From contig CP126120.1 of the NCBI GenBank assembly GCA_030123585.1, positions 1,465,254-1,529,253 on the forward strand: 64,000 nt of DNA. The letters are read 5' to 3'. The notes below the pieces were generated by a model. That model had not been told where the DNA came from, did no database searches, and saw nothing but the letters and a program-made list of their open reading frames with translations. The position numbers were made by a program, and so were the translations under genes. This document shows, piece after piece, positions 9,369-33,733 of the stretch. Positions within the stretch are counted from its first letter, which is position 1. Every line of letters begins with the position of its first letter. Source of the stretch: Rhodanobacteraceae bacterium (GTDB taxonomy: Bacteria; Pseudomonadota; Gammaproteobacteria; Xanthomonadales; Rhodanobacteraceae).

Positions 9369-9809
9369 ATGCCTACGCATCCAGTCCAACGCGGTTTCAC
9401 GCTGATCGAGCTGATGATCGTGGTCGCGATCATCGCGATCCTGGCCGCCATCGCGATTCCGGCGTATCAGGATTACTTGATCCGCACGCAGGTAACCGAG
9501 GGCATGACTCTCGCCACGGGTGCAAAATCCGCAGTATGGGATTTCGTTTCCAATACCGGCCGGTTCCCGCCTTCCAACCAATCCGCAGGCTTGGCCAAGG
9601 CCACGTCGATCATCGGTACTTACGTGTCCAAGGTCGATGTCACCGGCGGCAAGATCACTGCCACGTTTGGCAACCAAGCGAACAAGGCCATCCAGACTGC
9701 AGGCCAAAACACCTTGGTGCTGTCGCCGTGGACTCAAGGCGGCAGCATTCTCTGGTCCTGCACGCCCAGTACGGTCAGTCCGAAGTATCTGCCGTCGACG
9801 TGCCGTTAG
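9369..9809 (+). CDS. pilA: Type IVa major pilin (copy 1)
   Basis: Leader MPTHPVQRG followed by [28 protein letters not shown]-terminal Cys...Cys loop (WSCTPST...PSTCR). Confidence 0.9.
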   Translation: MPTHPVQRGFTLIELMIVVAIIAILAAIAIPAYQDYLIRTQVTEGMTLATGAKSAVWDFVSNTGRFPPSNQSAGLAKATSIIGTYVSKVDVTGGKITATFGNQANKAIQTAGQNTLVLSPWTQGGSILWSCTPSTVSPKYLPSTCR

Positions 9810-9834
9810 CGGAAAAGCCGGAACGTTTGCGCAA

Positions 9835-10065
9835 TCCTTGCCGCGGCTTCCGCCGCTCCTACAGGAGCGTTTGCCACGCGTTTGCCGCAGGTAGGAGGGC
9901 CGGAAGGCCCGATCGGGTCGCGGCTTCCGCCGCTCCTACAGAGACACGCGTGCATCCCGTCGCGGCTGCCGCCGCTCCTACAGAGACACGCGTGCATCCC
10001 GTCGCGGCTTCCGCCGCTCCTGCAGAGGCATCTTGTCGTGGCTGTCGCCGCTCCTGCTGAAACGC
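9835..10065. repeat. Family B REP array between the two pilin genes
   Basis: At least four CGCGGCT(T/G)CCGCCGCTCCT(A/G)C units. These include a ~44-bp tandem (GTCGCGGCTNCCGCCGCTCCTACAGAGACACGCGTGCATCCC). Confidence 0.8.
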
Positions 10066-10204
10066 GATGGGTGACGCAACGCGTCACCGTGCCGCGTTGC
10101 GTCTGCAACAAGGATTTCACAAGGATCACAAACCGTGAACAGCGTCCCAAGCACCGAATCCCCGAGCGGGCATGCTTTGCATCGAAACAAGCGGCGATGG
10201 GGTT

Positions 10205-10220
10205 TGGCATGAAAGCTGCT
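10205..10220 (+). promoter_or_regulatory. Candidate sigma54 (-24/-12) promoter of pilA2
   Basis: TGGCATGAAAGCTGCT has the same GG/GC spacing as the pilA1 element. It lies 118 nt upstream of the ATG. Confidence 0.4.
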
Positions 10221-10337
10221 TCGTTTCACCCGAGCTTCTGGCTCACTGGCCCGCTGGCCAGGGGGTTCGCATCAGGGGCTTGCACTTTGGGCATTCCCAA
10301 CCAGTTGACCAGTAACCAAGCAAAGAGGAATCCAACC

Positions 10338-10781
10338 ATGAAATCGATGCAGAAAGGTTTCACCCTGATCGAACTGATGATCGTGGTCGCGATCATCGCG
10401 ATCCTGGCGGCCATCGCCATCCCGGCCTATCAGGACTACCTGATCCGTTCGCAGGTCAGTGAAGGCGAATCATTGACGGGCGGCGCCAAGGTTGCCATTT
10501 CCGAGTTCTACGCGAACAAAGGCTATTTCCCGCCGGCCAACTCGTCTGCGGGTCTCGCCAGCCCCGGGTCGATCACCGGCAAGTACGTGACTCAGGTTGA
10601 CGCAGGCACCAAAGCAGGTCAGATCGTCGTCACGTATGGCAATCAGGCCAACACGAAAATCACCGCCAGCGGCAGCGATACGCTCGTCCTGTCAGCCGTC
10701 ACTGCAGCCGGCTCGATCAGCTGGACTTGCACGCCGTCCACGATCAATCAGAAGTACCTGCCCTCGAGTTGCCGCAAGTAA
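10338..10781 (+). CDS. pilA: Type IVa major pilin (copy 2)
   Basis: MKSMQKG followed by [36 protein letters not shown] 9 nt upstream. C-terminal WTCTPST...PSSCRK. The upstream part of the 299-aa track ORF is REP translation. Confidence 0.9.
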
Positions 10782-10807
10782 GCAACCTCGGTTTCGCCGC
10801 AACACCA

Positions 10808-10839
10808 AAGGGCCGCCCAGCGCGGCCCTTCTTCTTTTC
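10808..10839 (+). terminator. Rho-independent terminator after pilA2
   Basis: AAGGGCCGC-CCAGC-GCGGCCCTT followed by CTTCTTTTC. Confidence 0.7.
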
Positions 10840-10917
10840 GCCGAGCCTTCGTGTGCCGTCGGCAATGCATGCGGTTTCGCGCGAGCCATTGCAGGCGTCG
10901 TGCCCACGCGTTAGCAT

Positions 10918-30002: not shown

Positions 30003-30042
30003 GAGCGCGCATGGTACTTGTGACTGATCGGACGGCACCGAT

Positions 30043-30243
30043 TCACCACAGGAGTTCCACGCCGAACTGGCGAAGCGCTCGATCCTTGCTGACCAAGGTC
30101 AGCTCCTCGATCTCGGCTTGTGCGACCAGCAAGCGATCGAAAACATTCGCGTGGGCGTTGGTGCTCAGCTCGTCGGGCTCGTCCACAGACCCAGGGAAAA
30201 CGCGCGGATTCAGCCGTAGCCTCACTTGTCGCGGCCTTCCCAC
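30043..30243 (-). pseudogene. Truncated PIN-domain toxin remnant
   Basis: Only the C-terminal ~35 aa (FDRLLVAQAEIEELTLVSKDRALRQFGVELLW) resemble VapC-type toxins. The ORF is 66 aa versus about 125-140 expected. Confidence 0.55.
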
Positions 30244-30461
30244 GCGGCGAGCTCATCTTCCGGCAGCGGGTCGAAGAAGCTTTTGTCCACATGGAACCCT
30301 TTCATGAAATCGGGCTTGCGTCTTGCCGGCGCCTTCAATGGCACCAGCCGCGCATACGGTTTGCCGGCTTTGCCCAGCACGATTTCTTCGCCGGCATGGG
30401 CCCTGTCGAGCAGGCGCGAGAAGTGGGCCTTGGCGTCGTGGACGTTGATGACTTCGGACAT
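30222..30461 (-). CDS. Phd/YefM family antitoxin
   Basis: MSEVINVHDAKAHFSRLLDRAHAGEEIVLGKAGKPYARLVPL. Confidence 0.8.
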   Translation of the reverse strand: MSEVINVHDAKAHFSRLLDRAHAGEEIVLGKAGKPYARLVPLKAPARRKPDFMKGFHVDKSFFDPLPEDELAAWEGRDK

Positions 30462-30518
30462 GGCGAAAGCTAGCCTACGCGGTAAACCAGATCAATCCGG
30501 TGGCGCGAGCCAGGCTCG

Positions 30519-31445
30519 TCACGCATCGCGCCGATACGTGAGCGAGGTGATCTGCTCGGAAACCAGTCCGATCAGGAAGATGATCACGGCGGCGCTCCAC
30601 AGCGCGGCGCTGACGAGGCTGAGGCGGTGGAATCCGAAGAAGGTATAGGCCCAATAAATCCAGCCCAGCACGAAGAACGCCACCGCGGTGGGGGTGAACA
30701 GTTTCAGCGGCGCATACAACGTGGCGATCTTGAAGATGATCAGCAGGAAGCGCACGCCGTCGCGCAGCGGCTTGATGTGGCTCTTGCCGACGCGCTCGGC
30801 GGCCTTGATGGGCACGTACGTCACCGGGTAGGCGCTGCGGAAGAACGCCATGGTGCTGGTGGTCGGATAGGAAAAGCCGTTGGGCAGCAGGTGGATGAAT
30901 TCGCGGAACTTGTCCGCGCGCACGGCGCGGAAACCGGAGGTGAGGTCGGCAACCGTGTGGCCGGTCATCTTCGAGGCCAGCCAGTTGTAGAAGCCGTTGG
31001 CGATGCCGCGGCCGACGCCGGCCTGGTCGCCCCAGCCGCGCGCGCCGACCACCATGTCGTAGCCTTCGTCGAGTTTGGCGAGCAGGCGCGGAATGTCAGC
31101 GGGGTCGTGCTGACCATCGGCGTCCATGAACACCAGCACGTCGCCCTTCGCCGCGCGCGCGCCGCGCTTGATCGCGGCACCGTTGCCCATCGAGTACGGC
31201 GTGCCGACACGGGTTGCGCCGTACTTCGCGCACAACGCGGCGGTGTCGTCGGTGGAACCGTCGTCGGACACGATGATTTCGGCGTCCGGTTGCGCCGCGC
31301 GCAGCTTCGGCAACAGCTCGGCGAGCGCGACGGCTTCGTTCTTGGCCGGCAGGATGATGCTGAGCAAGGCGTTCCCCTCGGGTTCGCGGCATCTTAGCGC
31401 AGGCGGCTGGCGGACCTGCACCAAAGACCGATTGACTCGCGCCAT
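30519..31445 (-). CDS. GT2 polyprenyl-phosphate glycosyltransferase (GtrB/ArnC/DPM1-like) with C-terminal TM helices
   Basis: LSIILPAKNE, VSDDGSTDDT, FMDADGQHDP, and two C-terminal hydrophobic helices. Start is uncertain. Confidence 0.75.
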   Translation of the reverse strand: MARVNRSLVQVRQPPALRCREPEGNALLSIILPAKNEAVALAELLPKLRAAQPDAEIIVSDDGSTDDTAALCAKYGATRVGTPYSMGNGAAIKRGARAAKGDVLVFMDADGQHDPADIPRLLAKLDEGYDMVVGARGWGDQAGVGRGIANGFYNWLASKMTGHTVADLTSGFRAVRADKFREFIHLLPNGFSYPTTSTMAFFRSAYPVTYVPIKAAERVGKSHIKPLRDGVRFLLIIFKIATLYAPLKLFTPTAVAFFVLGWIYWAYTFFGFHRLSLVSAALWSAAVIIFLIGLVSEQITSLTYRRDA

Positions 31446-31565
31446 CCATGGCGCTCGCCCTCCGGGCCATCGGCTACGCCGATGTTCGCTCCGGCATTCA
31501 TGTTCCGCAGTCGGGTTGCCGCGCCATGAAACCGGTGTGGTCCCCTTCCTGCAGGAGAACCGGCT

Positions 31566-31860
31566 GCAGGTGGGCCGGAAGGCCGGAGCGTCGCGGCTGC
31601 CGCCGCTCCTACAGAAGCTGGAGTAGGAGGGCCGGAAGGCCGGAGCGTCGCGGCTGCCGCCGCTCCTACAGAAGCTGGGGTAGGAGGGCCGGAAGGCCGG
31701 AGCGTCGCGGCTGCCGCCGCTCCTACAGAAGCTGGGGTAGGAGGGCCGGAAGGCCTGAGCGTCGCGGCTGCCGCCGCTCCTACAGAAGCTGGGGTAGGAG
31801 GGCCGGAAGGCCCGACGAATATGCGCGAACGTGTGTCGCGGCTTCCGCCGGTCTTACCGT
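31566..31860. repeat. 57-bp tandem array (about 5 units) of family B REP pairs
   Basis: GGGCCGGAAGGCC starts counted at 31572, 31629, 31686, 31743 and 31800. It lies between the divergent GT2 (30519..31445) and pilB. Confidence 0.9.
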
Positions 31861-32002
31861 CACTTCTACACCACTACCACGGCGTTGGCACGAATCCCGC
31901 ATCCACTCTGGATGAATTGAGACGCGGGTCTCGCACTGCCCTGCCCAATCGGGCGGTTTTGCGATACATTCGGCTTGTGAATCGGGGGTTTGGATCACTT
32001 TG

Positions 32003-33733
<1,731 letters not shown>

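Follow-up and report, generated by a model that had tools for sequence, protein, structure and literature searches.

Glycosylation of type IV pilins blocks pilus-specific phages and alters the surface chemistry of the pilus. To our knowledge, only two classes of pilin-glycosylating enzymes have been characterised, the Wzy_C ligases and the single arabinosyltransferase TfpW. The latter comprises 646 aa and is described as having 11 helices, with a DDX motif in the first periplasmic loop and TPRs at the C-terminus; its gene lies directly downstream of pilA. Homologues of tfpW beside pilA in five other species have been discussed in the context of D-arabinofuranose (D-Araf) (bioRxiv 10.1101/2020.04.19.049825). 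The TMTC O-mannosyltransferases display DD, ..RP, KET and ERxxY motifs and a topology of 11 helices with lumenal TPRs (PMC7801869), and three-component GT-C systems have been reviewed (PMC11127046). Here, we describe an island of glycan genes situated between the pilin genes and pilBCD of a Rhodanobacteraceae bacterium (GCA_030123585.1). The island lies in a 64,000-nt stretch of contig CP126120.1 with a GC content of ~65%, referred to here as the window, and all positions below are those of this stretch. We assign a probability of roughly 60% to the reading that it serves pilin O-glycosylation and is organised around a conserved frame, an assessment drawn from sequence comparison. Its conserved core consists of pilin, DPM1/GtrB-like synthase and TMTC/TfpW-like enzyme, for which the best-supported reading is that pilin would be O-glycosylated in the periplasm from a polyprenyl-phosphate-linked donor.

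The island and its frame in related genomes

The initial 38 kb of the window form a single type IV pilus supercluster, in the order minor pilins, rmlD/C/A/B, two pilin genes, the island, pilB/C/D, an EptA/CptA-like gene and coaE. An earlier reading of the same DNA, made without database searches (the sequence-only reading), had proposed ~21 kb of glycan genes between pilA and pilBCD. The interval from the end of pilA2 (10781) to the start of pilB (32000) indeed measures 21.2 kb, and every class of glycan gene in its list was recovered by Pfam and NCBIfam at or near the position given. Absent from that list were pilA2, five toxin-antitoxin pairs and a remnant, a DegT pseudogene, in-frame repeats and the minor-pilin operon. 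The genes of the island and its immediate flanks are as follows.

9369..9809, plus strand: pilA1, type IVa major-pilin-like, 146 aa (Pfam Pilin, N_methyl)
10338..10781, plus strand: pilA2, second pilin, 147 aa (Pfam; 64% identical to pilA1)
12684..15014, plus strand: GT-C1, 776-aa TfpW/TMTC-like membrane protein, FDD motif after the first transmembrane helix
15075..17285, plus strand: GT-C2, 736-aa TfpW/TMTC-like membrane protein, 11 transmembrane helices and C-terminal TPR
19367-19633, plus strand: DegT remnant, last 87 codons, 67-70% identity to the DegT encoded after the GT-C gene of relatives L004 and L005
20652..21953, plus strand: Wzx-like MOP-family flippase (Pfam Polysacc_synt)
22044..28560, both strands: variable low-GC cassette of eight genes (Pfam, NCBIfam)
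28572..30038, minus strand: GT4 glycosyltransferase, a frame gene (Pfam; aligns to relatives)
30519..31445, minus strand: GtrB/ArnC/DPM1-like GT2 (Pfam Glycos_transf_2; divergent from pilB)
32000..36144, plus strand: pilB, pilC and pilD, the right flank (Pfam T2SSE, T2SSF, Peptidase_A24)

The arrangement was compared across relatives by scanning one genome per GTDB species and inspecting the best 80 of ~590 matches as loci with 10-kb flanks, in which genes were located by tblastn with the window proteins. These loci derive from Rhodanobacteraceae, Lysobacteraceae, Nevskiales, Halothiobacillus and unclassified Gammaproteobacteria. A same-strand type IV pilin occurs at most ~2.2 kb upstream of the first large-protein homologue in 61 of the 69 species-level loci with enough upstream sequence, with a median gap of 470 bp; in the window, pilA2 and GT-C1 are separated by 1.9 kb containing two toxin-antitoxin pairs. 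Two pilins together with two paralogues of the large protein are found in 40 of 63 loci, and the duplication is therefore old, with both copies kept. GT-C1 orthologues are present in most related loci.

The GtrB-like GT2, identified in 35 loci, adjoins pilB in 17 of the 18 that show both genes. It is the most conserved gene of the island, mostly 72-83% identical and thus conserved at the level of PilB or above; the membrane enzymes stand at ~40%. In some lineages (L049, L068, L072 and L073) the GT2 gene comes directly after the membrane-enzyme genes. A GT4 gene lies beside it in 14 of 35 loci. Precomputed Pfam annotation of three relatives agrees with the picture obtained by tblastn.

The sequence-only reading had regarded pilA as normally adjoining pilBCD and the island as accessory, neither of which was borne out. 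Among the 17 loci of this lineage in which both genes are visible, pilA and pilB are never adjacent; the interval spans 10-13 kb in 16 of them, the exception being a rearranged locus with 6.3 kb. In blastn comparison with the close relative L006, both flanks, GT-C2, the 3' end of DegT, wzx, GT4, the GtrB-like gene and pilB all align, and the Wzx-like gene, a member of the frame, shows 72-73% DNA identity to L006 and L015. Relative to the compact, 11-kb island of L006, the window carries an extra pilin, an extra GT-C paralogue and toxin-antitoxin modules at three junctions, retains only the last 87 codons of DegT, and has its central cassette replaced by a set encoding ATP-grasp, HAD, methyltransferase, FdtA, FdtB, GT2, rhamnosyltransferase and methyltransferase proteins. 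The GC content of this cassette is 0.53-0.59, against ~0.65 in the flanking DNA, and its 22.0-28.6 kb region has no DNA match in L006, L011, L014 or L015 by blastn, although the flanks on both sides align. Because the frame is common to the relatives and only the central cassette is swapped, an accessory insertion was rejected; the island is apparently a conserved, ancestral frame with one swappable low-GC cassette. As judged from these alignments, the frame would consist of pilA(s), one to three TfpW/TMTC-like enzymes, DegT, the Wzx-like flippase, the variable cassette, (GT4), the GtrB-like GT2 and pilB.

Both pilin genes are preceded by sigma54-type sites, at 9309-9324 for pilA1 and 10205-10220 for pilA2 (pattern search), the whole window containing three such -24/-12 sites where 0.27 are expected. 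A terminator-like hairpin lies 3' of pilA2 (10808-10830), and a terminator after the pilin has been reported for pilin/accessory-gene cassettes (PMC11841053). Beyond the third site, at 8940-8955, comes a strong terminator hairpin (9000-9031) without any intervening open reading frame (ORF), an arrangement that resembles the relic of a pilin cassette lost from in front of pilA1. In the alpha-beta loop of PilA2, residues ~66-76 (window 10500-10560) form an 11-residue stretch that resembles the surroundings of the glycosylated Ser63 in Neisseria PilE and is a candidate acceptor site.

The membrane/TPR proteins and the sugar genes

Two large paralogous membrane proteins are present, as the sequence-only reading had it; its description of them as GT-C/TPR transferases stands less firmly, with GT-C deduced in the absence of any family match and TPR support uneven between the two. 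GT-C1 and GT-C2 are 29% identical, and the sequence of GT-C2 is that of locus tag OJF55_001395 from a Rhodanobacteraceae metagenome-assembled genome. The family to which they belong comprises 35,592 representative clusters at E < 1e-3, of which 5,753 lie below 1e-30, with a typical length of ~650 aa. The only database names retrieved for relatives are 'TPR repeat protein', 'hypothetical protein', 'PilF' and 'protein O-mannosyl-transferase'.

AlphaFold2 modelling of GT-C2 with an alignment of 137 sequences yielded a pLDDT of 91 and a pTM of 0.91 (with 8 sequences the membrane domain was unusable, at a pLDDT of 52). The model contains eleven membrane helices, the first spanning residues 5-32, and a helical repeat domain from residue 513. 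D38-D39 are located on a short outer loop, 6 residues past helix 1, and the one low-confidence loop noted (residues 158-175, pLDDT < 50) coincides with the insertion site of a repeat element. From the helix count and the positive-inside rule, the N-terminus would be cytoplasmic and the TPR domain periplasmic. Profile searches identify the C-terminal repeat domain of GT-C2 as TPR, a match that is weak for the 736-aa sequence taken singly and clear for its family, 33 of 40 members matching TPR_19. The C-terminal part of GT-C1 aligns to the TPR domain profile at 96%, a result that is partly circular as GT-C1 is one row of the alignment. D38-D39 are invariant or nearly so across the 137 sequences, and the family invariants further include R75-P76, K271-E272-T, H393-D394 and E457-x-R459-x-Y461. 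On this combination of motifs and modelled topology, both proteins may adopt a GT-C fold. The cyanobacterial pilin Ogt was considered as a relative and dismissed, being a soluble GT41 enzyme with N-terminal TPRs (PMC9306852).

The sugar genes are divided between the rml genes, on the minus strand upstream of pilA (3866-8804) as previously proposed, and the central cassette.

3866 to ~4735, minus strand: rmlD (Pfam RmlD_sub_bind)
5105-5683, minus strand: rmlC (Pfam dTDP_sugar_isom)
5913-6788, minus strand: rmlA (Pfam NTP_transferase)
~7105-7400, minus strand: small GIY-YIG ORF (translation and relative L004)
7746-8804, minus strand: rmlB (translation and relative L004)
22044-22985, plus strand: ATP-grasp (Pfam/NCBIfam)
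22937-23611, plus strand: HAD (Pfam/NCBIfam)
23595-24317, plus strand: methyltransferase (Pfam/NCBIfam)
24371-24775, plus strand: FdtA (Pfam/NCBIfam)
24723-25889, plus strand: DegT/FdtB (Pfam/NCBIfam)
25871-26869, plus strand: GT2 (Pfam/NCBIfam)
26888-27850, minus strand: GT2 rhamnosyltransferase (TIGR01556, 174 bits, just below the family cut-off)
~27835-28560, minus strand: second methyltransferase (Pfam)

The closest relatives likewise carry their rml genes between pilA and the minor pilins. The GIY-YIG nuclease-family ORF between rmlB and rmlA has repeat elements on both sides, an arrangement shared with L004. Pfam and NCBIfam matched the Wzx-like protein, both methyltransferases and the proposed FdtA/FdtB cassette with its ATP-grasp and HAD genes. 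A 639-aa ORF at 27835-29754 is over-extended, as only its C-terminal ~240 aa constitute the second methyltransferase. The single GT4 was likewise found, while the count of three GT2 enzymes holds only if the GtrB-like enzyme is included. The assignment of the latter as a GtrB/ArnC-like polyprenyl-phosphate glycosyltransferase is upheld by 31% identity to E. coli ArnC (E 1e-23) and by two C-terminal hydrophobic segments; its NCBIfam matches are AglJ (the best, at 112 bits against a cut-off of 325), dolichyl-phosphate hexose transferase and ArnC.

Across essentially every sizeable ORF of the window, Pfam scanning returned no Bac_transf, Glycos_transf_4 or Wzy_C domain, no Wzz candidate and no unassigned membrane ORF fit for Wzy, while E. 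coli WecA, WcaJ and WaaL found no tblastn match in the window or in 84 related loci. An initiating phosphoglycosyltransferase of the WbaP/WecA type, Wzy, WaaL and a Wzy_C ligase are thus all lacking from the window and Wzx alone is present; therefore, as the sequence-only reading had concluded, this is not a standard O-antigen cluster. Neither ArnE nor ArnF gave a tblastn match, and the island has no spare coding space for a GtrA/SMR-type flippase. Domains of the D-Araf pathway (PPPRS, DprE1, DprE2) do not occur among the island ORFs. The TIGR01556 match, FdtA/FdtB, and the occurrence of ATP-grasp, HAD and methyltransferase genes but no acetyltransferase lead us to predict that the cassette specifies rhamnose and a 3-amino-3,6-dideoxyhexose derivative, and since there is no polymerase candidate, a short, unpolymerised glycan is predicted.

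Proposed route, rival explanations and neighbouring genes

Taken together, the genes present, their synteny and conservation, and the predicted topology and motifs lead us to infer that a glycan is made and that pilin is its target; what follows on acceptor, donors, sequence of steps and the separate roles of the two paralogues is a proposal. On the cytoplasmic face, the GtrB/ArnC/DPM1-like GT2 would place a sugar on undecaprenyl phosphate. RmlBACD, FdtA and FdtB would provide dTDP-rhamnose and a dTDP-Fuc3N derivative, with dTDP-4-keto-6-deoxyglucose feeding FdtA/FdtB, and the latter product would be N-acylated, probably through the ATP-grasp enzyme given the lack of an acetyltransferase, before being methylated. 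From these donors, GT2 and GT4 enzymes would build a short, unpolymerised lipid-linked glycan, for the flipping of which the Wzx-like protein is the sole candidate. In the periplasm, the two 11-helix paralogues would use the DD-bearing first loop for catalysis and the TPR domain to hold the protein substrate, transferring the sugar(s) to Ser/Thr of PilA1 and PilA2 ahead of pilus assembly. Finally, horizontal swapping of the central cassette, which is suggested by its GC dip and its lack of a DNA match in close relatives whose flanks align, would diversify the pilus surface, plausibly against pilus-specific phages.

Several findings weigh against pilin O-glycosylation as the function of the locus. 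With no initiating phosphoglycosyltransferase, the cytoplasmic GT2 and GT4 enzymes lack a mechanistic explanation: initiation may be performed either by a housekeeping enzyme elsewhere in the genome, or by the GtrB-like enzyme in the manner of archaeal AglJ. The membrane domains of GT-C1 and GT-C2 match no family in Pfam, NCBIfam or the PDB. Single-sequence and profile searches of PDB sequences with the two large proteins gave TPR matches or none at all, a search with the membrane domain returned nothing even at E = 10, and Pfam detected no GT-C family (PMT, PMT_2, DUF1736) in 40 full-length or 25 membrane-only sequences of the family, with stray DUF6056 and PIG-U matches in single members. 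Comparison of the membrane-domain profile with E. coli ArnT by hhalign gave a probability of 1.6%. The top 50 Foldseek matches of the full model in the PDB and BFVD are all TPR proteins, because the TPR domain swamps the ranking. The TfpW proline motif YX6PFX7P is represented by its YX6P half (the conserved Y377-P384), with no F after the P and no P eight residues on. The GT-C assignment therefore rests on motifs and topology, and in view of the ArnT, Foldseek and proline-motif results, and with TfpW compared through its published description, the large proteins are described as TfpW/TMTC-like rather than filed as members of the TfpW family. Furthermore, eight of the 69 loci have no pilin upstream of the homologues, and with the frame DegT a pseudogene and three island genes bearing in-frame repeats, function in this genome could be impaired.

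The eight loci without an adjacent pilin would fit a general periplasmic O-glycosylation system with many envelope targets, among which pilin is at most one and the adjacency to pilA is historical or regulatory. The TPR domains of TMTC and OGT bind many substrates (PMC7801869), and the family is very large (5,753 clusters with E below 1e-30), the loci inspected being its best 80. We nevertheless consider such a system unlikely, given the tight same-strand pilin adjacency in several families and the frequency with which duplicated pilins accompany duplicated enzymes (two of each in 40 of 63 loci). That the genes serve lipopolysaccharide or exopolysaccharide and are merely lodged within the pilus cluster is very unlikely. 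On that view, the large proteins and the GtrB-like enzyme would modify O-antigen, core or lipid A from the periplasmic side, in the style of Gtr/Arn systems, with the Wzx-like and glycosyltransferase genes building a lipopolysaccharide-linked unit; the trio of DegT, ArnC-like GT2 and large membrane transferase does resemble ArnB/ArnC/ArnT, and rml, FdtA/B, Wzx and GT2/GT4 are what O-antigen clusters typically contain. However, homologues of the phosphoglycosyltransferases and WaaL occur in 0 of 84 loci, the window offers no Wzy or Wzz candidate, similarity to ArnT is not detectable, the membrane proteins possess a TPR domain that binds protein, and pilA precedes them in 61 of 69 loci. Placement within the pilus cluster and gene content had led the sequence-only reading to a glycosylation system for pilin or another surface protein; the synteny test and the architecture of the large proteins support pilin glycosylation, with the pilin target itself deduced.

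Decay of the system in this genome, such that it no longer makes a glycan, must also be weighed, since the island has been heavily invaded. Its insertions and repeats are listed here.

10950-11497, plus strand: MazE-like/PemK pair (Pfam)
11948-12648, plus strand: RHH/PIN_3 pair (Pfam)
17345-18150, plus strand: PIN toxin-antitoxin pair (Pfam)
18670-19343, plus strand: FitA-like/PIN pair (Pfam)
19873-20543, plus strand: PhdYefM/PIN pair (Pfam)
30043..30461, minus strand: toxin-antitoxin remnant, Phd-like antitoxin (79 aa) and truncated PIN C-terminus (translations by eye)
13118-13384: in-frame repeat in GT-C1, including a 33-bp x 4.8 tandem repeat
15511-15601: in-frame repeat in GT-C2
29207-29426: in-frame repeat in GT4 (114-bp x 1.9)
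4963-7694, 9070-9097, 9810-10060, 11571-11772, 18271-18544, 31568-31812 and 41160-41685: intergenic repeats

The five type II pairs, one MazEF-like and four with PIN toxins, together with the degraded sixth occupy ~5 kb, with ~3.8 kb of coding sequence. They sit where functional modules of the island adjoin one another, positions at which L006 and L011 have none; the two pairs that split the pilins from GT-C1 (10950-12648) are not at this position in L006, L011 or L014. Two families of palindromic REP/MITE-like elements occupy the intergenic gaps and also lie in frame within three intact genes, those of GT-C1, GT-C2 and GT4, whose loops gain 50-100 residues; DNA similarity to relatives breaks off exactly at the repeat insertions. 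Two ORFs were discarded as genes, 31448-31915 (155 aa), which is a 57-bp x 4.3 tandem repeat, and a 203-aa minus-strand ORF at 10919-11530, which overlaps the MazEF pair. The DegT remnant, the remainder of which appears to have been displaced by toxin-antitoxin insertions, the repeats within three genes and the six toxin-antitoxin insertions would all be expected of a decaying locus. Against this, the remaining ORFs are intact and preserve their codon-position GC bias, the insertions are in frame and fall within a low-confidence loop or the GT4 interdomain linker, and the imported cassette supplies a DegT-family enzyme of its own, FdtB. Loss of function here is, on balance, quite improbable.

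The remaining features lie outside the island.

328..3570, minus strand: minor-pilin operon, pilX, pilW, pilV-like and fimU/GspH-like (Pfam PilX, PilW, N_methyl, Tt1218-like, GspH)
36197..37969, plus strand: EptA/CptA-like phosphoethanolamine transferase (Pfam Sulfatase, EptA_B_N; NCBIfam CptA below its cut-off)

The minor-pilin operon forms the left flank of the supercluster, with a gene order identical to that in L004. The EptA/CptA-like gene sits between pilD and coaE, and homologues (58% identity) lie between both GT-C genes in L050 (8162-9859) and L054 (8122-9825), with a further one in L027 (12149-13876). It possibly belongs to the pilin-modification set and may modify pilin with a phospho-form in the way of Neisseria PptA. 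Further downstream, a POT/PTR2 peptide transporter is divided over two adjacent ORFs (41543-42547 and 42560-43444) that correspond to the N- and C-terminal halves of the model, the result of either a frameshift/stop pseudogene or an assembly error; the repeat elements at 41160-41685 are directly upstream.

Comparison with known systems

Full-text literature searches retrieved no paper joining pilin glycosylation with Xanthomonadales genera, and none describing this layout. The locus shows TfpW/TMTC-like enzymes and a conserved polyprenyl-phosphate sugar synthase to be a standing part of the type IV pilus cluster in no fewer than 60 species-level genomes from Xanthomonadales/Lysobacterales, Nevskiales and Halothiobacillus, with an exchange of cassettes that resembles that of O-antigen loci. 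The locus bears on the roles of bacterial TMTC-like proteins, on whether a GT-C enzyme can act as an O-oligosaccharyltransferase, and on how a lipid-linked oligosaccharide may be started without a phosphoglycosyltransferase. Cultured carriers (Dyella, Rhodanobacter, Frateuria, Luteibacter, Solimonas), among them Dyella koreensis BB4, Rhodanobacter caeni JCM 16242, Frateuria terrea and Luteibacter sp. E-22, make it testable, and new O-glycosylation enzymes would be of value in glycoengineering.

TfpW, the pilin D-arabinofuranosyltransferase of P. aeruginosa group IV (Pa5196/PA7), is the first point of reference. The island proteins share with it the same-strand position directly after pilA, a family length of ~650 aa, a cytoplasmic N-terminus, 11 helices, DD(X) in the first loop and a periplasmic C-terminal TPR domain, a likeness taken from the description of TfpW alone; TfpW employs a polyprenyl-monophosphate sugar donor. 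In contrast to the TfpW system, the DprE1/DprE2/PPPRS pathway for D-Araf is replaced by the GtrB-like GT2, the Wzx-like protein, GT2/GT4, rml, FdtA/B and methyltransferases, there are usually two ancient paralogues instead of one, and half of YX6PFX7P is present. TMTC1-4 and PMT resemble the large proteins in their 11 helices, their lumenal or periplasmic TPRs and the DD, ..RP, KET and ExRxY motifs, a match at the level of motifs only; the acidic motif in the first outer loop would be catalytic, and conserved Lys/Arg residues would serve the lipid phosphate. The partner GT2, of the DPM1/GtrB type that makes a polyprenyl-phosphate sugar, recalls the pairing of TMTC1-4 with the dolichyl-phosphate-mannose synthase DPM1. 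Unlike TMTC/PMT, the island proteins match neither DUF1736, PMT nor PMT_2, and the ExRxY spacing is off by one residue; unlike TMTC, the system is bacterial and pilin-linked, and includes cytoplasmic glycosyltransferases and a Wzx-like protein.

A GT2 polyprenyl-phosphate synthase combined with a large polytopic extracytoplasmic transferase is also found in GtrA/B/C, ArnC/ArnE-F/ArnT, CsbB/GtcA/YfhO and the pentofuranose system of Kelly et al. 2024. The island differs from these three-component systems in its presumed acceptor, a protein and not a glycan or lipid A, in having a Wzx-like MOP protein as its only flippase with no GtrA/SMR-type protein, and in its extra Leloir glycosyltransferases. 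With TfpO/PilO, PglL and TfpM it has in common a link to pilin, a short unpolymerised glycan (predicted for the island) and the pilA-adjacent slot known from P. aeruginosa and Acinetobacter; these enzymes are, however, Wzy_C ligases acting on undecaprenyl-diphosphate-linked units begun by a phosphoglycosyltransferase, whereas the island has neither component.

A phosphoglycosyltransferase-free route to O-glycosylation, which we consider unlikely, would have an AglJ/DPM1-like GT2 start the glycan on undecaprenyl monophosphate, the GT4, GT2 and methyltransferase enzymes extend it in the cytoplasm, the Wzx-like protein flip it, a TfpW/TMTC-like GT-C enzyme transfer it en bloc to pilin, and the second paralogue add a sugar. 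If true, bacteria would possess an equivalent of the archaeal Agl pathway, and O-oligosaccharyltransferases would gain a second class, distinct from Wzy_C. Archaeal Agl N-glycosylation in Haloferax volcanii involves AglJ/AglD, AglR, AglS, AglB and AglP. As proposed for the island, it combines a GT2 of the AglJ type that works on a monophosphate carrier with soluble glycosyltransferases, a methyltransferase, a Wzx-like flippase and a pair of polytopic transferases. Unlike the island, Agl belongs to another domain of life, forms an N-linkage where an O-linkage is presumed here, and serves another acceptor, and the AglJ match of the GtrB-like enzyme reaches 112 of the 325 bits at which that family is cut off.

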